Shown here: one piece after another, positions 6,786-32,000 of the stretch
Layout: each line of letters starts with the position of its first letter
How positions within the stretch are numbered: the first letter of the stretch is position 1
Made by a program: the position numbers and the translations under genes
Origin: Promethearchaeum syntrophicum
Lineage (GTDB): Archaea; Asgardarchaeota; Lokiarchaeia; Sigyniarchaeales; Promethearchaeaceae
Length of the DNA: 32,000 nucleotides
Direction: 5' to 3'
Assembly: GCF_008000775.2 (NCBI RefSeq)
Contig: NZ_CP042905.2
Coordinates: forward strand, 3,420,001 to 3,452,000
The notes under the pieces: generated by a model
Told to the model about the DNA's origin: nothing
What the model saw: the letters and a program-made list of their open reading frames with translations, nothing else
Databases searched by the model: none

Positions 6786-8831
6786 TCAATGAGATAATGC
6801 ATTTGCAATTTCAGTGATTAAATGCATTAATTTTGAGGATAAATCGCTCAAGGATTTTAATATTACATATTGATTTGGTTTATATATTTTTGATAAATAA
6901 GAACTCTGACTTGAATCAATACTAATTGCATAAAGTTTTACTCCCATCCTTTGTATTGAAAATATGGCTTTACGAGTATCTTCAATTGCTTTTGGTCCTA
7001 AATAAGAAGTACCGCCATGGTGTGGTTGTCCATCTGAAATAATGATTAAAATCGGTGTAGAGTTTGTAGATGATTGTGATTGAAAATGATTCTTAACAAC
7101 AGTCCGAAATGATGTTCCATCTCTGTTTTCATTAAAAGCAGAAGCGACACTAATGGATCCGACTTTTGAAGGATTTAATTGTTCGTTTATATCTTTATAG
7201 ATTTTTTCACAAATGGAATTTTTGGAATACTTTGCACCAAACCCAATGATAGCATAGGAAATCCTAGTATTTTTTAAGGATTCCGCTAAAATTATACAAG
7301 ATTCCCTTGCTATTTTTATTCTCATCCCATTCATTGATCCAGATTCATCTACCAATAAAACTAGCTGAGCACCTTTATCAAAATTATGATATTTAAAGGG
7401 AGATTTAAATTGACCTCTACTAATTTTGACTTGAGCTAAATCTCTACCACATACATAGCCCCTTCGTTGACCTCTACGCATATTTGTCGATTTTTTTATA
7501 GGTGAAAATTTAATTTTTAATTTCTGAATTAAAATTGAATGAGTATTTACGATTTTCTTATAAATTTCAGCGGGATTTCTTACATTATTCAAATTTTGAA
7601 TAGCTTTTTCATTTCTAAAGAATTCTATTGAAATTATATCATCAAAATTTCGTATTTCTGGAGAAATTTCTCTGAATTTACTTTTACAACTTTTTTTTTC
7701 CTTCATTTCTTGTAAAATGGAGAGAATTTCTTCTTTAGATATATTTAATTCTTCTGAATTATCTTCAATGAATTCTTGAAAGTCAACCGCAGAATCCAAT
7801 TTCTTGGATTTTAGACTTCCCCTAATTTTTTTGAGTATTTCTTGGGACTTTTTATTTAATCTTATAGATTGAATTCCACTCGATGAAAATTTTATTTGGG
7901 ATTTGAATTTTTTTGAAATTGTGGTTTGAATCTCTTTTATCAATTCATCTTTTTTAGAAGCTTTTTCAAGTTCCTTCTCTTTGGGTAATCTTGATTCTTT
8001 AAACCCTTTAATTTGTGATTTATCACCTTCTTCTTTGGAACTAGCTTCATTTTTAGAACTTGCTTCTTTTTTGGAACAAGTTTCTTCTTTCTTTTTTCTA
8101 TCTTCAAGTTTTGGAAAAAAATCATCTTTAGAATCAAAGTATTTAAGTATTGAATGAATTATTCGCTTCGTTGCTATTAGAGTGGCTGCAAATGTCTGAT
8201 GGCTGCGAATAAATTTTAATGAATTTGAAATTTCCCTCCAAAAAAGACCTAATTGGGAAGATTCAAATTTAAATTTCCCACCTTCCGATAAGAGAAGATC
8301 AAATAATAATTCAGAATGTTGACATCCCTCAAAAGATAAAAAATTGATTAATAATTCAATTGCTTCGGGTTCAAATTTTTTTTCAATGGGGAATTGGGCA
8401 ATTTTTTTAATTTTTTGAGATAGCAATCTTAAATTTAAAATATCTATTTCATCCCAAAACCCTGGAAATGTTTCTTTGAGTAATAGCTCGACTCTTGCAT
8501 CTTCACAAATATTTAAGATAATCTGAGCAAAGCGAGGATTTTTAGGAAAAAGTTCTTTAGGGATTTGTGGATCGTTGATACTTTTAAACCTTATATGACT
8601 CCCCTCATGAGCGGCTAAACCTTCCAAATCTTCAAATGTTAATGATTTATCGCTAAATGGTAAAAAAATATTTACGCCATCTGTTCTGGGAATTCCATTT
8701 TTTACTACACATTGTGGAGAATCTGAAACTCTTTGAGCAATATTCTTCAAAATTCGTTGATCCGATAATTTAATGGTGTTTAGTTTGTTTTTTAAAAACA
8801 ACGGGGTTGATTTCATTATAAATATTAACAA
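6786..8831 (-). CDS. VWA-domain protein with an N-terminal HExxH (putative metallopeptidase-like) region. It is the partner of the adjacent AAA_5/MoxR ATPase and resembles the NorD/CbbO/CobT or DUF2201 classes.
   Basis: The C-terminal VWA domain has a complete MIDAS: D-E-S-G-S at 7335..7349, then RDGTSF and ISDGQP. HEGSH lies at 8595..8609, followed by NICEDARVE. A Lys/Glu/Ser-rich low-complexity linker occupies residues ~246-300. The ORF-track start at 8831 is TTG. The ATG at 8816 (MKSTPLF...) lies ~28 nt from an 'aaatatataaa' TATA-like element and is the more likely start. Confidence 0.8.
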   Translation of the reverse strand: MLIFIMKSTPLFLKNKLNTIKLSDQRILKNIAQRVSDSPQCVVKNGIPRTDGVNIFLPFSDKSLTFEDLEGLAAHEGSHIRFKSINDPQIPKELFPKNPRFAQIILNICEDARVELLLKETFPGFWDEIDILNLRLLSQKIKKIAQFPIEKKFEPEAIELLINFLSFEGCQHSELLFDLLLSEGGKFKFESSQLGLFWREISNSLKFIRSHQTFAATLIATKRIIHSILKYFDSKDDFFPKLEDRKKKEETCSKKEASSKNEASSKEEGDKSQIKGFKESRLPKEKELEKASKKDELIKEIQTTISKKFKSQIKFSSSGIQSIRLNKKSQEILKKIRGSLKSKKLDSAVDFQEFIEDNSEELNISKEEILSILQEMKEKKSCKSKFREISPEIRNFDDIISIEFFRNEKAIQNLNNVRNPAEIYKKIVNTHSILIQKLKIKFSPIKKSTNMRRGQRRGYVCGRDLAQVKISRGQFKSPFKYHNFDKGAQLVLLVDESGSMNGMRIKIARESCIILAESLKNTRISYAIIGFGAKYSKNSICEKIYKDINEQLNPSKVGSISVASAFNENRDGTSFRTVVKNHFQSQSSTNSTPILIIISDGQPHHGGTSYLGPKAIEDTRKAIFSIQRMGVKLYAISIDSSQSSYLSKIYKPNQYVILKSLSDLSSKLMHLITEIANALSH

Positions 8832-8880
8832 AAAGGAGTTTATATATTTCGATAAAAATTATCAAACAATTACTTCTTAG
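8832..8880. promoter_or_regulatory. Compact divergent promoter region between the VWA gene and the AAA_5 ATPase gene.
   Basis: The spacer is 49 bp. It contains tttatatattt (8839..8849) and gataaaaattatc (8851..8863; GATAA-N3-TTATC inverted repeat). Spacing to ATG 8816 on the minus strand and GTG 8881 on the plus strand fits TATA boxes ~24-28 nt upstream of leaderless starts. This is based on pattern only. Confidence 0.3.
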
Positions 8881-10152
8881 GTGATAATTATCACACTTCA
8901 ATCAGATAAATCCAAAAATAATGAGTTTAATGAGGCATATTCGGGGAAAACATCATCAAAAAAACATAACATAAAAGAAAACTCTATTGATATCCTTGAA
9001 AACAAATCCCCTACAACTCAAAAGGCTTTACCTTATAATGTTATTTACCCTAATAAAAATCAACAGATTTATTACCCAGTTCTTGAGTTTGAAGGAGAAA
9101 ATTTGGAGAAAATTAACGAATTAGAATTGATACGCTTAGCAGTTGAGAGAGATCGACTCTCTGGTTCAAAGCATGTTTCAACATTTTATTTTTTTAGCCC
9201 ACCAGGTCTAGGAAAAACAGTGTTAGGTAGTTTTTTAGCAGCATGTTATAAATGTCCATATCAAATTGTAAATTGTGTAAATTCTATGATAGATCTTGAT
9301 TTATTAGGGAGTCAAATCCTTATAGGAGAAGGAACAAAATGGCAAGATGGTCCTATTCCTTCGATTATTCGTGCAGCAAATCATCATAAAATGGCAATTT
9401 TAATTATTAATGAATTAAATGCACTAACAGTAAATGCACAGATGGGTCTTAATCCTTTATTAGATAAGCAACAAGGAGTAATACTGACCCAAAATAATAA
9501 TGAATTTGTAAATCTATCTGAGGATAGCCAACTTTTAATCATAGCAACAATGAATCCAGATGTTATGGGAATAAATGATTTACAAGCTTCCGTTCGAGAT
9601 CGTGCTTCAGCAATTATTGAAATGAGCTATCCTTCTCTTGAAAAAGAATCATGGTTAATTCAACAGCTTACAGGATTGGATCAAAAATGGGCTCTAATGT
9701 ATTGTGAAGTTATTGCAGAATGTAGGAGAGCAAAATTTATCGATAACACAGTAACAAAGGCTCCAAGTACTCGCGCTATTATTGACTGGATTAATTATTC
9801 AAAAGTTTGGGGGGCGATGTTGTCATTTAAATTGACCATAGCCAATCGCTACTGTGCAGGAGATAATGAAATGGAAAAAAAAATATTGATACGAATTGCC
9901 ACAGGAAAGGGAGTTCAAAAATGGAAAATCCCAAAAGATGAAGATAAATTTAAGGAGATAAAATATCAAGATAGATTTCATTTTCCAACTAGCCAACCAA
10001 TGAAAAAAAAGAAACCTACTGAACTTGGGAAAAAAGGCTTGACACCAAGACAGAAAAAAGAAATCAAACAGCAAAAATTAGCTCAGAAATTAAATTTAGT
10101 CCCCTTGGATAATTTCTTTGGAAAGAAAGATAAAAAGTCTGTCATTAAATAA
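8881..10152 (+). CDS. AAA+ ATPase of the AAA_5/MoxR (CbbQ/NorQ/CobS-like) class, with an N-terminal ~95-aa extension and a basic C-terminal tail.
   Basis: Walker A is SPPGLGKT (9196..9219). The Walker B position reads IINELN, with Asn-Glu instead of Asp-Glu (9409..9414). Sensor-1 is IIATMNP, followed by SVRDRASAI. The GTG start is forced: an in-frame TAG immediately precedes it and there is no in-frame ATG before the P-loop. Confidence 0.8.
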   Translation: MIIITLQSDKSKNNEFNEAYSGKTSSKKHNIKENSIDILENKSPTTQKALPYNVIYPNKNQQIYYPVLEFEGENLEKINELELIRLAVERDRLSGSKHVSTFYFFSPPGLGKTVLGSFLAACYKCPYQIVNCVNSMIDLDLLGSQILIGEGTKWQDGPIPSIIRAANHHKMAILIINELNALTVNAQMGLNPLLDKQQGVILTQNNNEFVNLSEDSQLLIIATMNPDVMGINDLQASVRDRASAIIEMSYPSLEKESWLIQQLTGLDQKWALMYCEVIAECRRAKFIDNTVTKAPSTRAIIDWINYSKVWGAMLSFKLTIANRYCAGDNEMEKKILIRIATGKGVQKWKIPKDEDKFKEIKYQDRFHFPTSQPMKKKKPTELGKKGLTPRQKKEIKQQKLAQKLNLVPLDNFFGKKDKKSVIK

Positions 10153-10204: not shown

Positions 10205-11029
10205 ATGAAATTAGATTTAGAGAAAGTTAACGATGGTTTGTTTAGTAGGTGGTGGATTTATATAGATTGTGAAAATTTTATTTATCAAAAAAATGTTCCA
10301 GAAAATGATGTAAAAGACGATGATATATTAATTCATAAAGAAATTAAAGAGGGAGAGACATTTCCAACCCTACGTTATCATACAATTTTAGATGAAGATG
10401 TATTAGAAATTGATGGAAAGATAGCCAGAGAAATGTTAAGTGCCAAATTAAAAGAATTTATATTAAAACATAAAAAAATCCCGTATTCCGTTGATTTTAA
10501 TAAAATACAAAAAAATGGATTAGTAATTTTCAAGTATTCACCAACCAAATTTGATAATTTTCAGCTCAAAATACCGGTATCAGATTTTGATTTAGAGAAA
10601 GATGAAGCGGAAGAATTTTTCACAAATATTGAGAATTTGGAAGGAATTCCTGTAGATGGAGAATTAAAGATTAATTTAATGCCTGATAATCCAGTTATTG
10701 AAAAAATCGCTTCAGAGAGTGGTGCAAATCGAGTATATATTTTTGAAGCGGAAGTAAAAGAGATGGAAAAGAGAAGTTCTGAATATATGGGCCACGTAAG
10801 TGAATTCTTTATTCTAGATCTTCAAAAAGGAAAAGCTGCTTCTGATAATAAGAAAAATTCAATGAAAAGAGATTTTGAGAGAGTAATAGTCAAAATTAGT
10901 GAGAAAACATTAACGACAGCAGAAATTAAAGTTGGAGATAAAGTATCCCTAAGTGGAAAAACAAAAATGAACAATGAATTTAAGTTTATTATTCAAAATA
11001 TACGTAAAATCACTAAGAATGAAGAATAA
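10205..11029 (+). CDS. Hypothetical protein with no recognised domain. It lies on the same strand, 52 bp downstream of the AAA_5 ATPase.
   Basis: 274-aa ORF with coding-like composition and no TM segments. I recognise no motifs. Confidence 0.6.
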   Translation: MKLDLEKVNDGLFSRWWIYIDCENFIYQKNVPENDVKDDDILIHKEIKEGETFPTLRYHTILDEDVLEIDGKIAREMLSAKLKEFILKHKKIPYSVDFNKIQKNGLVIFKYSPTKFDNFQLKIPVSDFDLEKDEAEEFFTNIENLEGIPVDGELKINLMPDNPVIEKIASESGANRVYIFEAEVKEMEKRSSEYMGHVSEFFILDLQKGKAASDNKKNSMKRDFERVIVKISEKTLTTAEIKVGDKVSLSGKTKMNNEFKFIIQNIRKITKNEE

Positions 11030-17447: not shown

Positions 17448-17744
17448 ATGTTATTTATGGGAGTAGAAGTGTCTGAACTGGACCTAATCCGTTTAGTGAG
17501 AAAAGATCCTTCCGTAATTGAATTGTATTCTATGGATCCGAAAACTGAAATTTATATAAAGAAATTAGGCACAGAAGCATTGGATCTTTTACAAAAAGAA
17601 TTCCCGAATTTCCTGCCTTCAAATTTACAAAGTGTATTCAATATTAATGTAATCTCCAGTAAAATGATTTCTTCTTCAGGATATAAAAAAATTCGCTTCT
17701 ATATTTCTGTAACAGGGAAATTACTTAAACGAATTGAGAGTTAA
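17448..17744 (+). CDS. Small hypothetical protein.
   Basis: 98-aa ORF in an otherwise non-coding gap upstream of the P-type ATPase. There are several candidate starts (ATG 17448, ATG 17457, GTG 17469) and no recognised motifs. Confidence 0.4.
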   Translation: MLFMGVEVSELDLIRLVRKDPSVIELYSMDPKTEIYIKKLGTEALDLLQKEFPNFLPSNLQSVFNINVISSKMISSSGYKKIRFYISVTGKLLKRIES

Positions 17745-20709: not shown

Positions 20710-20728
20710 CAGTCTTTAAGGTTATAAA
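20710..20728. repeat. IS left terminal inverted repeat.
   Basis: cagtctttaaggttataaa matches the reverse complement of 22168..22186 (cagtcttcaaggttataaa) with one mismatch. Confidence 0.85.
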
Positions 20729-22081
20729 TTAACTTTCAAAATATAACCTCCTTCTTTTTTTCTGTAAATATTTTAAATTATAACTCACTGATTGTTCAAT
20801 TAGATTATAGATCCTCCATTCTAATATCTCTAAAAACACAGCTAAAGTTCTCTTTGAGGCTTTAATTCCTGATTTTTCTGCTTCTCTTTTGAAATATTGC
20901 CAATTGTTATAAATTATTGCTCTCATATAGAGCTGAGATAATTGCACATTCGGATAATGATTCCGGAAACTTTTGTGAATATCATTCAACTTACTGAACC
21001 CCGTCTCTTCATTCCATCTTTTTTTATATGCTCGTGAAAGCCATTTAGCCCATCGTGAATGATTTTTCCAAGGTTTGAGAGTTGTAAAGAACCCTGCTAA
21101 CTGTTTTATTGCTTCATCGAACGTTAAAATACCTTGTCTGAATTGGCGCCGTATTTCGGTTGCTAATACATTTTTATGGCCAATAACGACAAAATTCACA
21201 TGAACCGAACTCGGCCATGGTTTTACCTTTTGGGTTTGTGAAAAGTGATAAACTGATACCAATGGACCTATTCCGAGCAAGAAATCTTTGATTTTTCTTT
21301 TAATTCCGGGATATTTCTTCGCGGGAATAAGAACTGGAAGTTTACAGGTTTTAAGATCTTTGATTAAGGCGGCGCGGTAAAATTCTCTATCCATGAGAGA
21401 ATAGGAAAGATTAATTCCCGACCACCTTATCCATTCTACCGAATGAGGGATGTTAAGACAACGATATTTCCCTTTTTGAAGTAAATAGAAATCAGTAAAC
21501 AATGTCATTCCAGATCCGTGAAGTGCATGCCCTTGAAACATGCGACAGAACCGAGTTCCTGGTTTTCGATTGGTTCCAATTTCAAAAAGCGAGTTGGGCT
21601 TGCCATAATATGCATATTCAGTGTTGTCAACTAAGAATCTGAGTTTTGATCCTCCGATACATCTAGCTTTAACCTTCAGTACAACGTTCATTAATAGATT
21701 TCCGAACAACATATTGACTTCTTTTTCAGATAACAATCTGAAAAATTTATCAACATCGGTTTGATGTGGTACTAAGCGCCGTTTACGAACTCCGTCTTGA
21801 AAATTTTTTGGTTTTAACTTGTATTTCTTGAAATATTGGAATATCAGCCATTTATTAAGGCGTTCCGAAGCTCTTTCTATCGGCGTCGAAGTTATTAAAG
21901 CATAAAATTTAACAAACACAAAATCTGCATATGAATAGAGCCTGGGCTTAAATCTTTTCGCGATTCCTAATCGAGTGACCAAACTGTTAACCAAAGATTT
22001 AAATTCTCCGAGGAGAAATATATCTTTAGGGAAAGGAAGGGTTTTCGATCTGGAAATCGAACGACTCCTTGCAATATTCAT
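20729..22081 (-). CDS. DDE transposase (IS4/ISH3-like, DDE_Tnp_1 type).
   Basis: Candidate catalytic triad contexts are FLVDNTEYAYYG, SLMDREFYRAALI...VLIPAKK and the Y-x2-R-x3-E motif YKKRWNEETGFSKLN. The gene lies inside the IR/TSD-bounded element. Confidence 0.85.
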   Translation of the reverse strand: MNIARSRSISRSKTLPFPKDIFLLGEFKSLVNSLVTRLGIAKRFKPRLYSYADFVFVKFYALITSTPIERASERLNKWLIFQYFKKYKLKPKNFQDGVRKRRLVPHQTDVDKFFRLLSEKEVNMLFGNLLMNVVLKVKARCIGGSKLRFLVDNTEYAYYGKPNSLFEIGTNRKPGTRFCRMFQGHALHGSGMTLFTDFYLLQKGKYRCLNIPHSVEWIRWSGINLSYSLMDREFYRAALIKDLKTCKLPVLIPAKKYPGIKRKIKDFLLGIGPLVSVYHFSQTQKVKPWPSSVHVNFVVIGHKNVLATEIRRQFRQGILTFDEAIKQLAGFFTTLKPWKNHSRWAKWLSRAYKKRWNEETGFSKLNDIHKSFRNHYPNVQLSQLYMRAIIYNNWQYFKREAEKSGIKASKRTLAVFLEILEWRIYNLIEQSVSYNLKYLQKKRRRLYFES

Positions 22082-22167
22082 AGATTATCATATAAATATT
22101 CTCCTTTCCCCTTTATATCTTCTATCGTTTTCATAGATTAGACTTAAGGACGTTTTTTGTCGTCGAG

Positions 22168-22186
22168 TTTATAACCTTGAAGACTG
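22168..22186. repeat. IS right terminal inverted repeat.
   Basis: tttataaccttgaagactg is the inverted copy of 20710..20728. It is followed directly by the TTTCCT target-site duplication. Confidence 0.85.
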
Positions 22187-22200
22187 TTTCCTCATTTTAA

Positions 22201-23052
22201 ATGAAAGTTAGATTAATTAGTCCGAATTTTATTAAATATATAGATATGACTGGAATTTTTAGAAATTCATCATTTTCCATTGAAGATTCAATTCTAACTA
22301 AGGATTTTACTCAAGAAAATTTATCAAAAATTAAGGATAAAATGAGAGAATTATTAAAAAAATCAAAAAGTAATAACAACTCAGTAGCAAAAGCTTTAGA
22401 AAAAATCGCACTGCTCTTAGTAGATGAAAATAAGGATATTAGAAAAATAACAGTTAATTTCTTTGAAGATCTTGATCAAGAACGATTTAAATTGCATACC
22501 ACAGAAGGTAATATTATCGCTCTTCTACCAGAATACCTTAAATCAAAGGTTCTTGAAGAACTCTTAAAAAAAGTACCTAATGGAGATAACAAATATAAGA
22601 TATTTGGAATATTTTGGTTAGGAATACTTGTATTTAAACCTGCTTTTCCATTTTTATTAAAATCACTCTCAGATCCCCATAAAAGAGTTGTTCGATCAGC
22701 AATTGTAGCATTGGGGATTTTCGGAGATACAAATGCAATTGATAAATTAACCCCATTTATATATGAGACCAAATTTATTCAAATTAGAAATAAAGCAATA
22801 GAATCAATCGGATCACTTGGAAACGATGGCCTCCAAGCATTAATACACCAACTTTATTTAAAGGGAGATGTGAATCCACCATTTTTAGAAACTCACATTA
22901 TGACCTTTGGAGGTCGTATAATGAACTTGCTTTCAATGGAAATAGAAATTGAATTGGATCCTCGGCGTAAAAAACTATTAATGAAATTTTTAAGAAAAGT
23001 TAGCGAGCATTATCAAGTAGAAATATCCCAAAATTTTAAGATTCTTCTTTAA
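22201..23052 (+). CDS. HEAT/PBS-lyase-like repeat protein.
   Basis: Helical repeats of the HEAT_2/PBS-lyase type recur: DPHKRVVRSAIVALGIFGDTNAIDKL and IQIRNKAIESIGSLGNDG. Confidence 0.65.
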   Translation: MKVRLISPNFIKYIDMTGIFRNSSFSIEDSILTKDFTQENLSKIKDKMRELLKKSKSNNNSVAKALEKIALLLVDENKDIRKITVNFFEDLDQERFKLHTTEGNIIALLPEYLKSKVLEELLKKVPNGDNKYKIFGIFWLGILVFKPAFPFLLKSLSDPHKRVVRSAIVALGIFGDTNAIDKLTPFIYETKFIQIRNKAIESIGSLGNDGLQALIHQLYLKGDVNPPFLETHIMTFGGRIMNLLSMEIEIELDPRRKKLLMKFLRKVSEHYQVEISQNFKILL

Positions 23053-23054
23053 TT

Positions 23055-24206
23055 TTGCTTAAATCTAAAATGCTTAAACCTAAAATTGGTAAAGAAATTT
23101 ATTTTTTCTTCTTTGCTATAGTTTGTTTTATTATTGGATTCGTGATTTTTTCTTTTAGGAAATATAATTCTCTGTTTTTTATTATATGTTCTCAAATTTA
23201 TTTCATCATATTTGGATCAATTAATCTTCTTTACACTATCAAGTCGCGCAATTCCCATTTGAAAAAGAAGATTAAAGGATTTTTAATAAATGAAATCTTG
23301 GTTGCGGTTGGATATTATATTTTAGCAATTATATACCCTTTTCTTTTCAATTTTGTAGAGAATACTTCTATTGAACAAATGTTGTATTTCCATTTATGGG
23401 ATTCATTAACCGTACACTTTTTTTGTTGGAAAATTTATCTCTATTTTGCAAAAAGAAACAATAGAAAATATAAAAGAGAAATGAATTACGTACAATGGAA
23501 AGAGCATTTCTTGGATAAATATTCGGAAATGGGCGAGTTTAAAAAGGATACAAAAAGAAAACTTGCACATTTCTACCCTGCTATAATAATTATTGGATGT
23601 TATTTTTTAGGAGAGGTTTTGGAGTCCTTTACAATCATATATGGAATTGATTCTCAATCTTTTAGTAAATATTGGCAACTTGCAATCGCTATTCATTTCT
23701 TATGGATGATTAATATTGCTGATCTATTTCGGCTAAACAAATTTGAGAAACTGGGAAAATTTGCTACTCGCTGGTTTGATAATTCGCTTCGTCCGACTGA
23801 ATTGGATACTTTTGCTCAAGGTTCAATTATGATATTATCATGGATTCCATTTTTCCTAGCGGATATTCAAATTTTATTAGCAATAGTCCTAATTAGTTCG
23901 ATTAGTGATGGAATAACGAGCATTATTGGTATAAAATTTGGTAAAACAATAATAAGAGGAACAACAAAGAAATTGGAAGGAACAATTGCGGGAACAATTA
24001 CAACTTATTTAATCGTAATTTTCATAAACTTATTTTTACCATTTCAAGGATTAATAAATCTCGAACTTCAGATAATCGCGTTATCTGCAGCAATTGGTTT
24101 TGCTTTAGTGGACATCTTTAGTAGAAAAATCACTGATAACTTCTTAAACCCCATAGTCACGGGCTCAATACTTTGGATCTTGCTTTTGATATTTCAGTCT
24201 TTTTAA
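23055..24206 (+). CDS. Polytopic membrane protein with a C-terminal polyprenol (dolichol/phytol) kinase / CTP-transferase-1-like domain.
   Basis: It has multiple TM helices. The C-terminal motif ISSISDGITSIIGIKFGKT...TKKLEGTIAG resembles the D..A..vG..fG....K(S/T).EGs.ag signature of dolichol kinase/CdsA-type enzymes, and TKRKLAHF lies upstream. The track start is TTG 23055; ATG 23070 is a likely alternative. Confidence 0.6.
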   Translation: MLKSKMLKPKIGKEIYFFFFAIVCFIIGFVIFSFRKYNSLFFIICSQIYFIIFGSINLLYTIKSRNSHLKKKIKGFLINEILVAVGYYILAIIYPFLFNFVENTSIEQMLYFHLWDSLTVHFFCWKIYLYFAKRNNRKYKREMNYVQWKEHFLDKYSEMGEFKKDTKRKLAHFYPAIIIIGCYFLGEVLESFTIIYGIDSQSFSKYWQLAIAIHFLWMINIADLFRLNKFEKLGKFATRWFDNSLRPTELDTFAQGSIMILSWIPFFLADIQILLAIVLISSISDGITSIIGIKFGKTIIRGTTKKLEGTIAGTITTYLIVIFINLFLPFQGLINLELQIIALSAAIGFALVDIFSRKITDNFLNPIVTGSILWILLLIFQSF

Positions 24207-24968
24207 TAATTTTTTAGCAGCAATTTTTTCAGATTGTTTTATAGTTGAAGCTTCTCCTTTAGCAGATATAATAGAATGAGAAGATAATTGAATAGAATAT
24301 TGAGATGTAAAAACTTTTTTATGAGGAGGACCCATTTCACTTATTAATTTTAAAGTGCTGCTTGGTAGTTTATTTTTTAAAATATATTCACTTAATTGAT
24401 TTTTTGGATTGTTTTGATTTTTATTTGTCAAATTTGGTACATAATCTCGATTTTTCATATCTTTGAGAATGTCATGGAATAAAAATTCAAATGATTGTTT
24501 ACAAAAATCATAAGAATTAAATCCGATTTCCTGATTATATTTAAAAATAGAACCAAAAATTGCTTCTATTGCATCTGCAAGTTGTTTATCATGAATAGAT
24601 ACACCTTCTCCTTTTAAAATAAGGGAATTTAGTCCAATTTTTTTACCCAATTTACCCAAAACCGAATTCGAGACAATTTCACTTCGTAATTGAGTATAAG
24701 TCCCTTCATTACCTTGAAAATGATCATATAACCAATCAAATGAAAGCAGATCTAAAACACTATCCCCCAATGCTTCTAACCTTTCATTAGATGGAGTAAC
24801 AGGATTAATTATATGATAAGAATCATGAGTAGTGGCAATATTTAGCCATTCTACTGTGATGGGTAGTTTATATTTTTCAATAAATTCTACTAATTGTTCC
24901 TTTCTACGGAGTTTCATTTGAGAACCTCTTTTAATTAACACTATATACTTTAAATTTGAGATGCCCAT
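24165..24968 (-). CDS. rnc: Ribonuclease III with a C-terminal dsRNA-binding domain.
   Basis: The RNase III signature NERLEALGDSVLDL and the second catalytic region LADAIEAIFGSIF are present. The C-terminal dsRBD-like region reads NPKNQLSEYILKN...PPHKKVFTSQYSI...KGEASTIKQSEKIAAKKLLKRL. AGAGGT lies 8 nt upstream of the internal ATG at 24917, so the probable true start is 24917 (MKLRRKEQ...). Confidence 0.88.
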   Translation of the reverse strand: MGISNLKYIVLIKRGSQMKLRRKEQLVEFIEKYKLPITVEWLNIATTHDSYHIINPVTPSNERLEALGDSVLDLLSFDWLYDHFQGNEGTYTQLRSEIVSNSVLGKLGKKIGLNSLILKGEGVSIHDKQLADAIEAIFGSIFKYNQEIGFNSYDFCKQSFEFLFHDILKDMKNRDYVPNLTNKNQNNPKNQLSEYILKNKLPSSTLKLISEMGPPHKKVFTSQYSIQLSSHSIISAKGEASTIKQSEKIAAKKLLKRLKYQKQDPKY

Positions 24969-25011
24969 TATATTTATTTAAATTGAATTTTATAAGTGTA
25001 AAGGATAAAAA

Positions 25012-25498
25012 ATGAATCTATTTTATAAAAAAAACGATCAAAAATATGAGGAAGCTACATTCGGGGTTTCTGAATTTGACATTATGTCATATTGGATAAT
25101 TATTAGAAAAAATTTTGAATTAAAATGCTGAATTTCATGAGAATGGATTTATACAAAAAATTTTTTTAAAGGATCTGGAAATATTTTAAAAAATTCAATG
25201 GGCGAAATTGGTTATTCAGAAGTATGAAATTAGTGTTTAAGTTGAAGAAATTTTAGCTACAAGAGATGAACAGATACCATGGATTATAACGGGAACACCT
25301 AAAACAACTGATAATAGTGATCTTTATGTATTTTTATGGGATGCATTTAATCCATACGACCCGCTAAATGATGATACAAAAGAGTGGTTTTCAAGATATT
25401 GGACGATTCAAGTATCCCAGACAGGAATTAACAAAATTCTCCCAAAATATGTTTTATTTGAATTTGATGAAGAATTATCTGCAGTTAAAAAAGAGTAA
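25012..25498 (+). pseudogene. Probable decayed gene, read as fragments in three different frames.
   Basis: A 39-codon ATG ORF (25012..25131) is followed by short stop-interrupted pieces. The last piece is an 85-codon stop-free segment (25241..25498, VEEILATRDEQIPWIITGTPK...FEFDEELSAVKKE) with no ATG/GTG/TTG start. An ATG at 25224 sits in a neighbouring frame across an aaatttt run. Confidence 0.3.
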
Positions 25499-25509
25499 AC
25501 AGAAAATTA

Positions 25510-26073
25510 TTATTTTTTATCAAAAATATAAGCGTTAATCAATCCACCCTTCTTAATTGTAACATTAAGGGATAAATCTCCCATAAATTCAACCGGATTA
25601 GTTGCATTTGGATGACCAGGATAACTTTTTCTTATTTTTTCTATACCCTCTTCAGTAAATTCAAAAATTACAATTTTTCCATAGGGTTTTGGTTTTATTA
25701 TGCGGATCATTTCTGAAAATGCTTTGAATTTATCTGAAAAATGATGGAAAGATCCATTAGCAAAAATTGCATCGAAATAACTATCTTCAAATGGTAAATT
25801 TTCAGCTTGAAAATTCTTAAAAGTAATTTTATCAAACACATTAATTTTTCGTGCATATGTTTGCCAATCTGCCCAATTGTGGCTTTCAGGTTCCCCGGTA
25901 ATTATTTTAAATCCTGAAAGTGCTAAAATGAATGCCATTTTTCCTCTACCTGTTCCAATATCTAAAATTAAAGAATCTGGCTCAAAATTAAGGTTTTTAA
26001 TTACATTTAACATAAAATCGAGATTCTCAGAAAATTTTTCTCCTAATATTCCGATTTTTTTTTTTAAACTCAA
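25510..26073 (-). CDS. Class I SAM-dependent methyltransferase.
   Basis: Motif I is ILDIGTGRGKMAFILA. The acidic post-I residue (ITGEP) and a FDAIFANGSFHH motif-IV-like region are present. The size (187 aa) is typical. Confidence 0.85.
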   Translation of the reverse strand: MSLKKKIGILGEKFSENLDFMLNVIKNLNFEPDSLILDIGTGRGKMAFILALSGFKIITGEPESHNWADWQTYARKINVFDKITFKNFQAENLPFEDSYFDAIFANGSFHHFSDKFKAFSEMIRIIKPKPYGKIVIFEFTEEGIEKIRKSYPGHPNATNPVEFMGDLSLNVTIKKGGLINAYIFDKK

Positions 26074-26163
26074 ATAATATCAAATATTTTATATTTTTGC
26101 GTCAATAATAAGATTAAGAATCCGAATTATAGGATTTTTTAAAATTATTGAGGATAAAATAAA

Positions 26164-27177
26164 TTGATATTGGATGTAGTTTGGGGGTGGATTCCATTTT
26201 CTCTTGCGGTATGGTCGGGATTCTTTTTAGGACTTCTTCATACACTAATGCCTTGTGAAGATAAATTTATCTTCTGTTTTTATGCTTTTGGAGTTAGTAG
26301 AGACTGGAAACAAGCATTTCGAATTGTAAACTTCTATGGATTTGGTTTATTCCTAACAAACCTTATAATTGGAGCGATTTTATCATATATTTCTTCAATT
26401 TTAGGACAGACATTACTGGAAAATCTTGAGGAGTATAGATTTTTAATAAATGCGCTTTCTGGAATATTTTTAATAATAAGTGGATTAATCATGCTTTTTC
26501 AAGTATTGAAAAAAAAATATTGGCCCCATAGCGATCAACTTCAAGAATTGATTGAAAATTTACCAACATTACGCTCAAGGAAGCGAACGGGATTTCTTTT
26601 AGGTGTTTTAGCAGGGATTCCACCTTGCATTTTCGAAATAGGAGTATATACTTATGCTTCTTTAACATCAGCAACCAATGGGTGGGGTAATGGAGTCTGG
26701 ATTGTATTCTTTTTTGGAATTGGGACTTGGTTGGGATTAATTCCATTGGCGATTCTCGGTACAATGAGTGGTAAACTTTCAAAAGTTATGCAAAAATCAT
26801 CTATGGCTCGGTTTCATTTTAAAATTTCGCGCAATAAAAAGAAAAAAAAGGATGAATCACATGAAACTGAAGCAATTGAGAGCAATACCACTGATTCGGA
26901 ACAAACTAAAAGTTCATTTAATTTAGAAATCATTAGTGCAGGATTTATGATTGTAATAGGTATTATTTTTCTAATTTTTGCGATTTTAAACATTAATATT
27001 ATTCCATTAGAGGAGGTTCCACGTACAACTTGGCCTTTCAATGAAGATAATGTGCACTATTTTTGGATTGGATCCTTAATTTTATTTATTCTTGGTATTT
27101 TAACCTATGTTTTTACAAATCAAGTTAAAAAATCGAAATTTAGAGAGGAAGAAAAATTCCTTGAAACAATTAAGTAA
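26164..27177 (+). CDS. Polytopic membrane protein, possibly of the DsbD_2/CcdA-like family, with a Lys-rich cytoplasmic insert.
   Basis: It has about 7 TM helices. Two membrane-embedded Pro-Cys motifs are present (LLHTLMPCEDK and GIPPCIFEIG). The charged insert reads RNKKKKKDESHETEAIESN. The TTG start is forced, since there is no in-frame ATG before TM1. The family call is weak. Confidence 0.45.
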   Translation: MILDVVWGWIPFSLAVWSGFFLGLLHTLMPCEDKFIFCFYAFGVSRDWKQAFRIVNFYGFGLFLTNLIIGAILSYISSILGQTLLENLEEYRFLINALSGIFLIISGLIMLFQVLKKKYWPHSDQLQELIENLPTLRSRKRTGFLLGVLAGIPPCIFEIGVYTYASLTSATNGWGNGVWIVFFFGIGTWLGLIPLAILGTMSGKLSKVMQKSSMARFHFKISRNKKKKKDESHETEAIESNTTDSEQTKSSFNLEIISAGFMIVIGIIFLIFAILNINIIPLEEVPRTTWPFNEDNVHYFWIGSLILFILGILTYVFTNQVKKSKFREEEKFLETIK

Positions 27178-27179
27178 AA

Positions 27180-28106
27180 TTAAATAGGAAAGATTTTCAT
27201 ATTTTTTTTTAATTTTCTCATCCCTTCAGAATAAATATCCATTCTATTATAGTTTAAACCAAATTGAAAATAAGGAACACAGGTGCGGGAATATAGGAAT
27301 TTCATTCTATTAAAAAAATTTTCTTCCTTAATCCCCTTATAGTTGTCTAAAATATGTTTTAGAAAAATTTTTCCTTCATCGTAAAAAAGGAAATCAGCAG
27401 CTGGATCAAAAATACTTGATTCTTCAAAATCTATGATTCCAGTAATGTTGTAACTCTTGGGGTCAACTAGAATATTCGACGTATCGAAATCTCCATGAAT
27501 GACACAAGGAGTAAATTCAAAATTCTGATTATCTTCTAAAAAATCTGAGAATACATTGTCTAACCAATTTTTTTGCTTAGAGTTTAATTTAGGAATTATA
27601 TCTTTTCTCATTTCCTTATTTATTTTCATCCAATAATTACGATATTCTTTTATGGATAATGGTTTTAATTCTGAAGATTCGTCTAATCTTAATGAATGTA
27701 ATTCTGATAAAAAATGAGCAATTTGATTTGCTACTTTTTGCTTCTGAGTTTTATTTAATTCATTAAAACATTTAGATAACGAAACACCAGGAATTTTCTC
27801 GTAAACCATGAATGGATTTTCTGTATTCAATGAAAAATGAAGAGGTTTTGGAATTTTAAATGATAAGAAAGATCGTAAGAGATTTAAAATATCAATTTCA
27901 TTTTTAATTAATTGCGATCCTTTCTCATTTCTTAGAGATTTATCAGGAAAGCGCGCTATGAAGCGATTTTCCACTTGAAAAACATTATACGTCCCATGGT
28001 AGAAAAAGTGAATGTTTTTCTTTAAAAGATCAGGAAAAAACTCCGTAAGAGCAGAATATACTGTTGAAAGTGATATATCTGAAGGAATATTATCTTCAAA
28101 ACCCAT
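27180..28106 (-). CDS. APH-fold (aminoglycoside phosphotransferase / choline-kinase-like) small-molecule kinase.
   Basis: Brenner motif VIHGDFDTSNILVD is followed by GIIDFEESSIFDPAADF, and the N-lobe-like start reads FFYHGTYNVFQV. The substrate cannot be determined from the sequence. Confidence 0.8.
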   Translation of the reverse strand: MGFEDNIPSDISLSTVYSALTEFFPDLLKKNIHFFYHGTYNVFQVENRFIARFPDKSLRNEKGSQLIKNEIDILNLLRSFLSFKIPKPLHFSLNTENPFMVYEKIPGVSLSKCFNELNKTQKQKVANQIAHFLSELHSLRLDESSELKPLSIKEYRNYWMKINKEMRKDIIPKLNSKQKNWLDNVFSDFLEDNQNFEFTPCVIHGDFDTSNILVDPKSYNITGIIDFEESSIFDPAADFLFYDEGKIFLKHILDNYKGIKEENFFNRMKFLYSRTCVPYFQFGLNYNRMDIYSEGMRKLKKNMKIFPI

Positions 28107-28158
28107 TAATTAAAATTTTCTTTTCTTCATATATTAATTAACACTTCAAAATTTTAAT

Positions 28159-28929
28159 GTGATTTCTGGATTATTAAAATTTGTTAATGGGCGAAGGATG
28201 AATAGCATGGGACTAAGAGATATAGAAGACAGAGCAAAAATGCGAGAATTAATGAAAAAAAAAGCAGCAGAATTACGCATGCATAGGCTTGAAACCGAAA
28301 CTGCGATCACAAAAATGACGAAAGAAAAATTAGCAGATATTGCCAAGAAACACGGAGTTATCCTTGCTCTAGATCCTGATATGAAAGATGTAGTTGAAGA
28401 AATCCGTAAAAAATATAATATTCCTAAAGAACGAATAATTAGAGAACAAATCACTGAAGGAGATGTTCTAAAGAGTGGAAGAAAAATCATATATAAAAAT
28501 TTAGCAATGTTCACTTACCAACGCATAATGTTGGAAAAAACTGAAACTGGGGGGTTACTTACTTTACCTGATGTCTTTGATAGGGTAAATACGGGAATTT
28601 TAAAGAATAGGATTACAATTGGCGATGTTGAAAGAGCAGTTAAGATTCTAAAAAAAGATAATGTAATCCCTGAAATTAATAGATTACCGAGTGGAGTTTT
28701 AGCCATTTCATTTTTCCCAGTTCAATATACCCAGGATCAAACTTCTATCTTAGAAATTGTGAAGAATGATGGTGTTATCAATACAGGCGATGTTTGTAAA
28801 GCTTTAAATTGGACCGTTGATCGTGCGGAAAGAGCTCTCCAGAACTTAGTAGATACGCGCGTTGCAAGGATTACAGAAACCTTTAGAACAGGTAAACAAT
28901 ATTTCTTCCCAAGTTTAAAAATAAATTGA
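28159..28929 (+). CDS. ESCRT-II EAP30-domain protein (Vps22/Vps36-like).
   Basis: By eye, the C-terminal ~130 aa align with human SNF8/VPS22. GGLLTLPDVFDRV matches GGLITLEELHQQV. DVERAVKILKK matches DLIRAIKKLKA. ILEIVKNDGVINTGDVCKALNWTVDRAERALQNLV matches VLQLAEKNGYVTVSEIKASLKWETERARQVLEHLL. QYFFPSL matches HYWLPAL. The track start is GTG 28159; ATG 28198 or 28207 is more likely. Confidence 0.85.
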   Translation: MISGLLKFVNGRRMNSMGLRDIEDRAKMRELMKKKAAELRMHRLETETAITKMTKEKLADIAKKHGVILALDPDMKDVVEEIRKKYNIPKERIIREQITEGDVLKSGRKIIYKNLAMFTYQRIMLEKTETGGLLTLPDVFDRVNTGILKNRITIGDVERAVKILKKDNVIPEINRLPSGVLAISFFPVQYTQDQTSILEIVKNDGVINTGDVCKALNWTVDRAERALQNLVDTRVARITETFRTGKQYFFPSLKIN

Positions 28930-28948
28930 GTGAAAAAAGCGATACAAT

Positions 28949-29533
28949 CTATGAAAACTTAAATTTAATACCAAATTGGTCTTTATCAATTTCAACCATA
29001 TCTGCTTTTCCTTGTTTTTCAATTTTTTTGAAAATTTCTCTGAGATCTTCAACTGGTAATGCCGCAAATTCTTGATCTGAATTTCGAATATCCGGAATCA
29101 TGATAACATCAAAAATAGCATGATCTTGAGCCCATTTCTCTATTACCGAAACCCATTCTTCAATAGATTTCCAGTAGACTCGTAATGCTTCCTTTTTCTT
29201 AATCCATTTTCCTAAATTTTTTTCAACCAAACCCTCTGCGAGTTCATTAATTGCATTTTTTCGATCAATAAATTTATTAAACGGTTTCTCAGTTAGAAGC
29301 CTTTTGAGAAAGATAATATGAAATGTCCCAACTTTCGCATAATCGAGTAGAACTTGAGACCATTCATCTCTCCAAGACATATAATCGTCTTTATTTTTCT
29401 TTTTATTTGGGACCGAATACATAAATCCATATTGAGGTAATTCAATCCATTCATGTAATTCAATTAGTTTTTCATAAGGTGATTTTTCGGCAATTAACGT
29501 TTCAGAAGCAACTTCTTCTTCTAATGCTATCAT
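28949..29533 (-). CDS. vps25: ESCRT-II Vps25-like protein (tandem winged helix).
   Basis: By eye it aligns with human VPS25. [23 protein letters not shown] matches [62 protein letters not shown] matches EFHGLDEATLLRALQALQQEHKAEIITVSDGRGVKFF. The upstream 84 codons are also open in frame (see findings). Confidence 0.85.
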
Positions 29534-29827
29534 GTCTTTTTCTATTTCTACATCACTAATTGAAATCTCAAAAACTTTTTCACCCTTTGTAGCACTTGAA
29601 ATTCCCTTATCGATCGATGACTCTAAGGTTTCTAAACCATCCTCCGATTCTTGTGTTTCAATAGAACTTAATTGCGATTCTAATTCTTCTAATCTTTTAA
29701 GCTTCTCTAATTTTTTTTGCTTATCCTTTTCTTTCTGTTTTAAGATTTCCGAATCTTTATCTCTTACTTTTTCCGCGATTTCTCTTCACCTGTCATCTGT
29801 CATCTGTGATTTTTTAATGGCAATTAC

Positions 29828-31057
29828 CTATCCGCCAAATTCTCCTCTCCATTTTTCGAATTTTTCAATTTCTGAATCCGAAACAACAGGCTTTATGTTT
29901 TCTAATACCTTAATAAAATCTTCTCGAGTAATTTTCCGTAAGGTGAAATCATTATTTGAACTTGATAATTGCCCAGAAACATCCAATTCGCGTACTGGTA
30001 ACATTACAACTTCACGACATACAGTGGCAATATCTGAACCAGAATATCCTTCAGAAATTTCCCCTAATTCTTTGAAATCGACCGTTTCATCCATCTCGAC
30101 TTCTTTAGTGCAAAGTTCAAAGATTTTAGTTCGCCCTTCCACAGTAGGAAGACCACAATATATCTTTTTTTCAAACCTCCGAAGAACAGCATTATCAATA
30201 TCCCATGGAAGATTGGTTGCACCCATTAAAGTCACCAATTTGTCACTAGAACTTTTAACTCCTTGCATTTCCTGTAGAAATTGCGTTTTAATTCTTCGTT
30301 CTCCCCCACCTTCATGACCTCCTCCTCTTTTTCCTGCAAGACTGTCAACTTCATCCATAAAAATTAAAGAAGGAGCGTCTAAACGAGCTACTTTGAATAA
30401 TGTTTTTAGTAATTTTTCTGATTCACCTAACCATTTTGAAACTAAACTAGCAGAATCGGCAGCAAAAAATTGTACTCCACATTCATTTGCAGCCGCTTTT
30501 GCTATCAAAGTTTTCCCGCAACCGGGTGGACCAAATAATAGTATACCACGCCAAGGTTTTCGTGCACCTCTGAAAAGTTCGGGATGAGACATTGGTAGAA
30601 CTACCGCCTCTCTAATTGCTTGTTTTGGGTTCTCCATTCCTGCAACGTCACCCCATGTGATAGTTGGACGTTCAGTTATAATGGTTCCTTCAATAGTTTT
30701 TCTTAATTCCTTCTCATCATCAGACATTTCTGCATCTTCTTCAGATTCTCCTGATTCTTCACCAGTTTTATCTTTCCTATTACTTTTATTGGGAACCCGA
30801 CCAGAAGGAACTTTGAGTTTCTTATTTTTAAGTTGAGTTAGCATATCTGCACGTTTAAAGTACTGAAGGGCTTTTTCTTGAGCCAGTTTTTTCAATTTGG
30901 TGTTTTTACAGAATTTAGCAAATTCATTGAGTGTCTCGGTGGCATTTAAATATTTATCAGCCGCTTCATCAAATTGTTTTTGCTTATCAAGTTCAATTGC
31001 TTCATTAGCTAGTTTTATCGCAGCATTAAAGATTTTGTTATCAGAACTCATTTCCAA
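29828..31057 (-). CDS. vps4: Vps4 / CdvC-type AAA+ ATPase (MIT domain + AAA+ + C-terminal helix).
   Basis: The N-terminal MIT-like three-helix region reads AIKLANEAIELDKQKQFDEAADKYLNA...ALQYFKRADML. An acidic linker follows. The conserved stretch is TWGDVAGME..KQAIREAVVLP...PELF.G.RKPWRGILLFGPPGCGKT (Walker A). Walker B is IFMDEVDS, sensor-1 is MGATNLPWDID and the Arg finger is LRRF. Confidence 0.95.
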   Translation of the reverse strand: MEMSSDNKIFNAAIKLANEAIELDKQKQFDEAADKYLNATETLNEFAKFCKNTKLKKLAQEKALQYFKRADMLTQLKNKKLKVPSGRVPNKSNRKDKTGEESGESEEDAEMSDDEKELRKTIEGTIITERPTITWGDVAGMENPKQAIREAVVLPMSHPELFRGARKPWRGILLFGPPGCGKTLIAKAAANECGVQFFAADSASLVSKWLGESEKLLKTLFKVARLDAPSLIFMDEVDSLAGKRGGGHEGGGERRIKTQFLQEMQGVKSSSDKLVTLMGATNLPWDIDNAVLRRFEKKIYCGLPTVEGRTKIFELCTKEVEMDETVDFKELGEISEGYSGSDIATVCREVVMLPVRELDVSGQLSSSNNDFTLRKITREDFIKVLENIKPVVSDSEIEKFEKWRGEFGG

Positions 31058-31393
31058 TAAAGAATAATCTTTACAAACTTTAATATTCTATTTATTTTTT
31101 AATCAATAAAAATCCCAATAAGAATGAATTAAGAATGATAATTTCAAAATTATTAAGTTTAACCTTCATGATCCTTTGCTTTGCATTGAAAAATTCATGA
31201 ATATCTGCATATTTTTAGCCTCGATTTCAGTTTTCTTAATATATTTAAGAGGTCATTGCCAATAAATATGAATCTACTCAATTCCAGTGTACGAACGCCA
31301 GAGAACGAATCAAATATACTTTAAAAAATAAAGTACTAAAAAATGCAAAGCTATTAATAGATTAAAGTTCTTAAAATAATAAAGGTTATAAAA

Positions 31394-32000
31394 ATGGATA
31401 AACATAATTTTACAGCTGAATCAGTTGATTTGAAAAAAATCGAAAAAAACGCATTTTTAATCTATTTTCAAGATGGAATTTGGGATATGTTGCTTGGATG
31501 GGTGCTTATTTCTTTTGGAATAGCGGCATTACTTTATGATATCCTTCCAATACCGCTGAACTCCTTATTCGGTATGATTTTATTCACCTTTGGTCTAATA
31601 ATGTATTTTCTGATAAAATTCCGAATTATAATGCCAAGAATCGGTTATGTTAAATTCTCTCCTAGCCGAAAAAAGAATACGTTAATTTTAGGAGTAGCAA
31701 TAACCTCCTTCCTCATTATAACAGTTGTGTTTTCAATTTTGGTATGGACCGGAGTAATAAGTTCAACTGTAACCCCTGGAACCAATATGGCTTTAGTCTT
31801 TGCACTGATACCGCTTATTATTTTTAGTGTATTGTCTTTTATCCTAAAATTTCCTAGAATGTTTTTAATTGGTGTCTTTTTTGCTTTAGCAATGTTCTTT
31901 ACGGAATATTGGAACCGTTCTGGAGAAGATCTATTAGGGTCTTTAGCTCAATTTTTCGCAGGAATTCCGGTTTTTTTATGGGGAATCGTGTATTTCATCA
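31394..32000 (+). CDS. Multi-pass membrane protein of unknown function (partial; runs off the right edge).
   Basis: I translated manually from ATG 31394 and found no stop through 32000 (202 codons). Hydrophobic helices repeat, for example MLLGWVLISFGIAALLY, LFGMILFTFGLIMYFLI, LILGVAITSFLIITVVFSILVW and MALVFALIPLIIFSVLSFIL. It is absent from the ORF track because it has no stop in the window. Confidence 0.7.
   Translation, partial: MDKHNFTAESVDLKKIEKNAFLIYFQDGIWDMLLGWVLISFGIAALLYDILPIPLNSLFGMILFTFGLIMYFLIKFRIIMPRIGYVKFSPSRKKNTLILGVAITSFLIITVVFSILVWTGVISSTVTPGTNMALVFALIPLIIFSVLSFILKFPRMFLIGVFFALAMFFTEYWNRSGEDLLGSLAQFFAGIPVFLWGIVYFI

Follow-up and report, generated by a model that had tools for sequence, protein, structure and literature searches.

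Where does the ESCRT-II subunit Vps25 begin in Promethearchaeum syntrophicum MK-D1? The question is raised by a 32,000-nt stretch of the MK-D1 genome (NZ_CP042905.2, positions 3,420,001 to 3,452,000; we call this whole stretch the window, and coordinates below count from its first base). [quoted passage not shown] An earlier note, made from the letters by eye, correctly recognized the trio of Vps22-like protein, Vps25 and Vps4, yet all of it had already been published (Hatano 2022; bioRxiv 10.1101/2025.11.01.685982), the trio for MK-D1 itself by Imachi 2020. Only an N-terminal extension of Vps25 without a canonical start codon appears to be new. The features on which the argument depends are as follows.

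28207..28929, + strand: EAP30/Vps22-like ESCRT-II subunit, 240 aa (DSAG12_03697, QEE17859.1; Pfam EAP30, phmmer, Foldseek).
28949..29533, - strand: Vps25 as annotated, 194 aa, the tandem winged-helix core (DSAG12_03698, QEE17860.1).
29534..29779, - strand: Vps25 N-terminal extension, 82 codons, in frame with the annotated open reading frame (ORF; homology, substitution rates).
29786..29791, - strand: AGGTGA, a Shine-Dalgarno-like hexamer, 6 nt upstream of an ATC codon.
29786..29803, - strand: mini-ORF of six codons, ATG ACA GAT GAC AGG TGA, sharing the Vps25 frame.
29828..31051, - strand: Vps4 ATPase, 407 aa (DSAG12_03699, QEE17861.1; MIT, AAA, AAA_lid_3, Vps4_C).

The Vps25 frame upstream of its annotated start

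The 295-bp "gap" between annotated Vps25 and Vps4 (29534..29827) is not intergenic, as 29534..29779 prolongs the Vps25 frame. These 246 nt 5' of the annotated Vps25 ATG are open in frame and offer no ATG, GTG or TTG. Across Asgard loci the Vps25 ORF has a median length of 300 aa, which makes the 194 aa of MK-D1 an outlier, and the extension is homologous to the N-termini of Asgard Vps25 proteins of 293-317 aa, including the 293-aa protein of Lokiarchaeum ossiferum. It consists of K/E-rich helices and a motif GISSATKGE, and AlphaFold models it as three low-confidence helices at residues 9-41, 49-62 and 76-91. Many of the homologs begin with MAE at the exact position of ATC-GCG-GAA in MK-D1.

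As an indicator of selection we use the ratio of nonsynonymous to synonymous substitution rates (dN/dS) in pairs within the genus. The extension has values mostly of 0.04-0.2, with one pair at 0.36, and the core has values of 0.04-0.11. The synonymous rate dS of the extension ranges from about 0.1 to above 2 with a median near 0.9, most pairs lying between 0.5 and above 2, which is close to saturation. Over the first 11 codons of the extension, variable columns are distributed 4/3/9 by codon position in the Vps25 frame, and the third-position bias sets in at the ATC codon. Because low dN/dS and codon-position bias both place the extension under purifying selection, it has probably been translated throughout the history of the genus. 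From these comparisons we expect, with good but not full confidence, that the 82 codons are translated, and that the MK-D1 Vps25 product is 276 aa (computed at 32.4 kDa) and not 194 aa.

Candidate starts for the proposed long form of Vps25

Other genera of Lokiarchaeia start Vps25 at a GTG that sits within GG-GTG-A and overlaps the stop codon of Vps4. MK-D1 keeps AGGTGA and has its Vps4 stop 48 nt upstream of the ATC codon. The hexamer holds an in-frame TGA (29788..29786) and a GTG (29789..29787), the latter +1 out of frame, so that the in-frame reading before the extension is TGA AGA GAA ATC. This configuration with no canonical start recurs in independent assemblies of the genus, where it is the majority state, and a neighbor-joining tree finds it at the genus root and in both clades. 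The spacer varies in sequence (AAGAGAA, AAGAAAA, AAAAAAA, AATAAAA) at constant length, and among the derived variants are several relatives with an A7 spacer, which puts the GTG in frame. The mini-ORF is the remnant of a 13-codon ORF that relatives start at an ATG abutting the Vps4 stop; in one relative (L093, by our numbering of the loci compared) TGA has become AGA, so the upstream ATG mini-ORF runs on into Vps25. The sole feature invariant across all variants is AGG(T/A)GA followed, 5-6 nt on, by an AT(C/A) that lies in the Vps25 frame; it is found in 12 of 12 genus-level sequences whatever the upstream variant. The codon in the start position is never ATT in the genus, and ATC makes up 12% of the Ile codons in the window genes.

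It seems rather more probable than its opposite, from sequence comparison, that MK-D1 and most of the genus make a 276-aa (~32 kDa) Vps25 without AUG, GUG or UUG, by an AUC/AUA start or by recoding. For the route itself our preference is tentative: initiation would take place at the near-cognate AUC 29779 (ATC 29779..29777), 6 nt after the Shine-Dalgarno-like AGGUGA, on a Vps4-Vps25 co-transcript. We tentatively take this as the most parsimonious route because the AGG(T/A)GA-spacer-AT(C/A) pattern alone is invariant and ATC is rare among Ile codons. In bacteria, infC has near-cognate AUU/AUC/AUA starts (NCBI translation table 11) and prfB uses programmed +1 frameshifting. The likeness of Vps25 to these genes is in a conserved ORF lacking AUG, GUG and UUG, with a Shine-Dalgarno-like element close upstream of the critical position; it differs from them in that no autoregulatory logic is evident and in that the mechanism is one that we infer.

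Several points weigh against a long Vps25 started at AUC 29779. AGGTGA is not enriched in the window, with 13 sites where 10 are expected, and many genes here appear leaderless. Wherever AUC initiation has been measured it is weak, and we found no archaeal precedent for it in the literature searched. The GTG is in frame in several natural relatives, and MK-D1 could represent an "off" state that reverts frequently. Lastly, the 194-aa Vps25 folds, crystallizes and localizes in human cells, so the core alone is at least stable (10.1101/2025.11.01.685982).

The alternative that survives best is that the extension is untranslated in MK-D1, the product being 194 aa from ATG 29533, and that the frame is kept by recurring in-frame GTG-A7 alleles, on which selection would act, as at a phase-variable contingency locus. 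The frame does lack a canonical start and the 194-aa protein is foldable, but ATG 29533 has no Shine-Dalgarno-like site and its Met is conserved only in the closest genera. The A7 and A8 tracts are one base apart and in-frame forms occur in several sub-lineages, as such switching would have it; against this, the state with no canonical start is the majority and basal in the tree, and it survived spacer substitutions in MK-D1 and L091 that leave no homopolymer for reversion. An extension left mostly untranslated would also drive dN/dS toward 1, and the observed range stays far from it. MK-D1 and its 98%-identical relative L001 are identical in the Vps25 gene, so recent decay is not judgeable from this pair. 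We regard the untranslated extension as unlikely, though it keeps enough in its favor to be taken seriously.

Long Vps25 could also be made by recoding, either from GUG 29789 with a +1 shift on the A-rich spacer or from AUG 29803 with read-through or re-initiation at UGA 29788; we consider this improbable. In most genus members a run of A8 comes after the GTG, and tRNA-Lys could re-pair there at +1, but the spacers of MK-D1 (AAG AGA A) and L091 (AAT AAA A) would not permit this and are poor slippery sites. The 10-nt spacing is intact in a contig assembled from an RNA-seq run, which makes bulk transcriptional slippage unlikely, and a review counts one programmed frameshift documented in archaea, a -1 event. 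As to the second route, the mini-ORF in the MK-D1 sub-clade is in the Vps25 frame and stops at UGA, a single T-to-A change fuses it to Vps25 in L093, and selenocysteine machinery is present in Lokiarchaeia (PMC8211752). No in-frame ATG precedes the UGA, however, in L004, L058, L085-87, L090 and L091. With five genus lineages lacking an upstream in-frame ATG, we reject selenocysteine insertion or read-through as a general path through TGA 29788.

Three other accounts of the start region were discarded. A Vps4-Vps25 read-through fusion would need a shared frame, which is found only in MK-D1, with two stops between, and not in L004 or L058. A homopolymer sequencing error does not agree with a spacing that is equal in at least 10 independent assemblies, including those with non-homopolymer spacers. 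The "Trp" at the TGA in protein P0210 (L092) arises from a gene caller that used genetic code 4, while the DNA reads TGA.

That same code-4 call yields a spurious 300-aa Vps25, which could mislead searches for full-length homologs. Another observation on the related data concerns L001, a 16.9-kb contig from the Logan assembly of DRR199588, the MK-D1 expression run of Imachi 2020. It is 97.9% identical to MK-D1 over window positions 22187-32000, with 203 differences of ordinary substitution types, and its Vps4 protein differs, so these data seem to contain another, closely related strain. Being only a 98% relative, L001 was set aside as RNA-level evidence for the reference strain.

If long Vps25 is indeed made from AUC 29779 or by another non-canonical route, then a segment of this ESCRT-II subunit is missing from the GenBank Vps25, from the 9UYV crystal construct and from the constructs used in human cells; the segment is conserved among Asgard lineages and under selection as strong as that on the folded core. 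If translated, the extension may mediate binding to Vps22, to the membrane or to ESCRT-III. Non-canonical start selection, or recoding, would then also be documented for an Asgard archaeon, a member of a group whose translation-initiation factors are eukaryote-like. Few Asgard archaea are in culture; MK-D1 is among them, and crystallization and heterologous expression of its ESCRT proteins are now under way.

Identity and expected role of the three proteins

An exact-sequence look-up finds all three proteins letter for letter as QEE17859.1, QEE17860.1 and QEE17861.1 of MK-D1 (genus name formerly Prometheoarchaeum), encoded on one 4,324,194-bp (4.32-Mb) chromosome. Asgard ESCRT-II and Vps4 genes are reportedly also among those published by Spang in 2015. 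In Supplementary Table 3 of Imachi et al. 2020, DSAG12_03697-03699 are all expressed and are listed as eukaryotic signature proteins. The three genes adjoin as the earlier note had said, and their Pfam matches all exceed the gathering scores. That note had drawn the module from 28159 to 31057; the three ORFs do lie there, but the starts are ATG 28207 and ATG 31051 rather than GTG 28159 and TTG 31057. For the first gene, homologs open with MGIRKIED at ATG 28207 and the deposited protein likewise has 240 aa. For Vps4, a product from TTG 31057 was unmatched in the exact look-up, and the deposited protein begins two codons on, at ATG 31051, a start with which the homologs agree.

The Vps25 core matches PF05871 (ESCRT-II/Vps25) with E = 4.4e-10 and 40.4 bits versus a gathering score of 27. 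The annotated 194-aa protein is 100% identical to PDB 9uyv_A ("ESCRT-II complex subunit"), and an X-ray structure of MK-D1 VPS25 is described in the preprint 10.1101/2025.11.01.685982. The AlphaFold2 (AF2) model of the core has a block-mean predicted local distance difference test (pLDDT) of 84-96, and Foldseek gives it seven hits with E of 0.001 or less, all to Vps25 (Odin 7PB9, human 3CUQ_C with a template modeling score of 0.77, and yeast 1XB4).

The EAP30 protein scores E = 6.9e-13 and 49.3 bits against PF04157 (gathering score 26.8) over residues 28-233 of the 256-aa ORF. The earlier note had aligned it by eye with human SNF8 and the next protein with VPS25; phmmer against PDB sequences bears out both likenesses, with E = 1.6e-7 to SNF8/VPS22 and E = 1.5e-4 to VPS25 (3cuq_C), the EAP30 protein matching VPS36 only at E = 0.3. 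Its AF2 model (pLDDT 71) has N-terminal helices and two winged-helix domains, and Foldseek ranks human VPS22 (3cuq_A, 2zme_A) and yeast Vps22 at the top, with Vps36 after them. By sequence and predicted fold it is nearer to Vps22 than to Vps36. That the locus has a single EAP30 paralog holds for the window and is the Asgard norm (PMC9192718), but it does not hold for MK-D1, whose genome carries another gene with an EAP30 domain, DSAG12_02218 (215 aa; Imachi 2020 Supplementary Table 3). The preprint 10.1101/2025.11.01.685982 names a VPS36-like protein with an OB-fold N-terminus.

The Vps4 ORF, taken as 29828..31057, contains MIT at 12-74 (6.9e-11), AAA at 172-302 (1e-37), AAA_lid_3 at 326-358 and Vps4_C at 372-408 (1.3e-8), all passing the Pfam cut-offs. 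Among PDB matches, the best full-length one in a single stretch is human VPS4B 2zam, with 311 bits over residues 1-357. The translation contains GPPGCGKT, LIFMDEVD, SKWLGESE and NAVLRRFEKK. We take GPPGCGKT to be the Walker A motif, LIFMDEVD Walker B, KWLGE the pore loop, and RR the arginine fingers of the second region of homology. The NCBIfam CdvC equivalog NF041006 reaches 285.6 bits, short of its cut-off of 650. According to Lu 2020 (PMC7240154), Asgard Vps4 clusters with the eukaryotic protein and is better than CdvC at complementing a yeast vps4 deletion, and an interaction of Vps4 with ESCRT-III has been reported for Asgard (Hatano 2022, PMC9192718).

Could the locus hold no ESCRT module at all, but winged-helix transcription factors beside a generic AAA ATPase or CdvC, or else eukaryotic contamination? 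As far as sequence analysis reaches this is already refuted, and we give it practically no chance: the EAP30 protein does have a weak HTH_24 match (E = 0.12) and the AAA core also matches CDC48 and PAN, but the family-specific Pfam models exceed their cut-offs, MIT and Vps4_C are present, the top fold matches are solely to Vps22/36 and Vps25, the CdvC equivalog cut-off is missed, at least 73 of the 82 Asgard loci keep the order EAP30-Vps25-Vps4 and 58 have an adjacent Snf7, and the genes sit on closed archaeal chromosomes.

The assignment of the host to the Asgard archaea also stands, given the exact MK-D1 proteins, the Asgard relatives and the equal gene order in the closed chromosome of Lokiarchaeum ossiferum. 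It is because of that matching order on a closed chromosome that eukaryotic contamination is excluded. The 80 related loci retained from one-genome-per-species collections are all labeled Asgard or merely "uncultured archaeon", and the named EAP30 homologs are all Asgard bar one, from "miscellaneous Crenarchaeota group archaeon SMTZ-80". The remainder of the window is archaeal as well, with PheRS alpha, PheRS beta and archaeal PPAT all found.

By analogy with Asgard and eukaryotic homologs, a dimer of the Vps22-like protein would form the stalk and carry two Vps25 arms, and Vps25 would recruit an ESCRT-IIIB (Vps20/32/60-like) subunit, so nucleating Snf7-type filaments on the membrane. Vps4 would then grip the ESCRT-III tails by its MIT domain and dismantle the filaments with ATP. 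For this, the genes for ESCRT-III, the second EAP30 protein and the ubiquitin-like protein would be supplied from elsewhere in the genome. Precedent for the first steps is found in Hatano 2022 (PMC9192718), where Vps22 of Heimdall, Loki and Thor homologs homodimerizes and binds two Vps25 by size-exclusion chromatography with multi-angle light scattering (SEC-MALS), cross-linking and yeast two-hybrid, and where Vps25 of other Asgard lineages interacts with ESCRT-IIIB by yeast two-hybrid.

Eukaryotic ESCRT-II (human SNF8/VPS36/VPS25 3CUQ; yeast 1U5T) shares the tandem winged-helix fold with the MK-D1 subunits, and presumably also their role in recruiting ESCRT-III. One difference is in the N-terminus of Asgard Vps25, which is extended by about 80-110 aa that are charged and helical. 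The eukaryotic Vps25 N-terminus is short and has PPXY motifs. Another is the lack of a GLUE-domain Vps36, in place of which Asgard Vps22 is reported to homodimerize (PMC9192718). The closest solved homolog besides 9UYV is Odinarchaeota Vps25 (7PB9, Hatano 2022; E = 6.7e-21 by sequence, Foldseek 1.7e-10). It also is N-terminally extended, residues 1-58 having been deleted to crystallize it, but its paper hints at no unusual start (a comparison that does not extend to the gene DNA), whereas the MK-D1 extension is start-less and absent from the deposited protein. The CdvABC system of Sulfolobales and other TACK archaea has in CdvC a Vps4-related MIT-AAA ATPase, with the ESCRT-III-like CdvB as its partner. 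The MK-D1 locus has no CdvA, and ESCRT-II subunits are absent from Cdv systems; the MK-D1 module is not a Cdv system. The module is part of the evidence that eukaryotic membrane-remodeling machinery predates eukaryotes, a case already made for MK-D1.

Gene order, absent ESCRT genes and other features of the window

EAP30 on the + strand is convergent with Vps25 on the - strand, with 19 bp between their stop codons, and Vps4 lies upstream of Vps25, co-directional on the - strand. Two antisense ORFs, 28146..28514 (-, 122 aa) and 29532..30317 (+, 261 aa), were rejected as Ser/Leu/Phe-rich low-complexity shadows of purine-rich sense codons; codon-position bias favors the sense frames opposite them in EAP30 and Vps25/Vps4. 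On the EAP30 side the module is flanked by an APH-fold kinase and a polytopic membrane protein.

27180..28106, - strand: APH-fold kinase, flanking, outside the module (Pfam APH 1.9e-22).
26164..27177, + strand: DsbD_2-family polytopic membrane protein, EAP30 neighbor (Pfam DsbD_2 4.9e-16).

To ask how typical this order is, we clustered ORFs across 82 Asgard loci. Convergent EAP30 and Vps25, with Vps4 upstream on the Vps25 strand, are found in 73-75 of the 82, and 58 have a Snf7 gene, in most cases immediately upstream of Vps4 and transcribed divergently from it. The recurrent Asgard order is PUA(UPF0113)< EAP30> Vps25< Vps4< Snf7>, seen in metagenome-assembled genomes labeled Thor, Hermod, Hod and Odin and followed there by Ras and a 340-aa family. 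The clade of Promethearchaeum, Lokiarchaeum ossiferum and Harpocratesius shares the convergent EAP30/Vps25 pair, but lacks the adjacent Snf7 and PUA genes and has a DsbD_2 gene upstream instead: DsbD_2> EAP30> Vps25< Vps4<, with no Snf7 within 10 kb. Among the loci compared, only those of the genus Promethearchaeum have the APH kinase between DsbD_2 and EAP30. The idea of a reduced or rearranged cluster is right for this locus, the rearrangement being real in the 82-locus comparison, but it is a clade trait and the lacking parts are encoded elsewhere in the genome.

Lokiarchaeum GC14_75 gives a closer comparison. Its genes Lokiarch_37450-37480 likewise run EAP30, Vps25-like, Vps4, with similarities of 46%, 41% and 52% to the respective MK-D1 proteins (Spang et al. 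2015, as given in Imachi 2020 Supplementary Table 3). There a Vps2/24/46-like Snf7 gene (37480) comes directly after Vps4, whereas the nearest Snf7 in MK-D1 is DSAG12_03711, twelve locus tags off; relative to GC14_75, MK-D1 has the APH kinase inserted between DsbD_2 and EAP30 and has lost the Snf7 adjacency.

The absence of ESCRT-III, ESCRT-I and ubiquitin genes from the window is confirmed by Pfam, which finds no Snf7, Vps28, UEV or ubiquitin among the window ORFs of at least 90 aa, antisense shadows of longer genes left out. Nor do these families appear in the 7 kb past the window end, as represented by the 98%-identical L001, by the three unannotated genes scanned there and the precomputed Pfam listing, or, for Snf7, by the ORF clustering. 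A hidden ESCRT-III at the window edge was considered and set aside, since the ORF that extends past the end, at 31394, encodes a membrane protein without a family match, as was one between Vps4 and Vps25, where the gap is the Vps25 extension. Four ORFs of 374, 274, 383 and 98 aa (396-1520 on the - strand; 10205-11029, 23055-24206 and 17448-17744 on the + strand) have no match in Pfam or NCBIfam even when thresholds are permissive, and a divergent Snf7 or Vps28 among them was rejected with no match even at E of 1 or less. By eye, the 374-aa ORF has an N-terminal alpha/beta region followed by two winged-helix-like segments. The missing parts are listed elsewhere in MK-D1: besides the Snf7 gene DSAG12_03711, these are a second Snf7 gene, DSAG12_02101, and a ubiquitin-like gene, DSAG12_00424 (Imachi 2020 Supplementary Table 3). 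The partial text of the Imachi 2020 supplementary files contains no mention of Vps28 or steadiness. Rfam and tRNA scans find no RNA genes in the window.

The DsbD_2 protein adjoins EAP30 in 13 loci and in two arrangements (L005-L010, L012, L030 and L064 among them), and the pair is also found without Vps25 or Vps4 nearby, in L010, L012, L030 and L064. From this co-occurrence a functional link between the DsbD_2 membrane protein and the Vps22-like protein is possible.

Elsewhere in the window, a divergent pair at 6786-10152 consists of the genes for a 681-aa VWA-domain protein (-) and a 423-aa MoxR-like ATPase of the AAA_5 family (+). The ATPase starts at a GTG within AGGTGA with an ATC 5 nt on, the same pattern as at Vps25 in other Lokiarchaeia. 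The - strand at 24165-24968 codes for an RNase III of the bacterial type that also has a dsRNA-binding domain (Pfam Ribonuclease_3 and dsrm), scoring 117 bits to NCBIfam RNaseIII, under the equivalog cut-off of 166. Bacterial-type RNase III is uncommon in archaea. An insertion sequence at 20710-22186 has 19-nt inverted repeats at 20710-20728 and 22168-22186 and, between them, the gene for a DDE transposase of 450 aa (Pfam DDE_Tnp_1; its match to the ISH3 family is weak). It splits a P-type ATPase gene from a HEAT-repeat gene, two genes that adjoin in Lokiarchaeum ossiferum, and the HEAT-repeat gene encodes 283 aa here versus 583 aa in that species.

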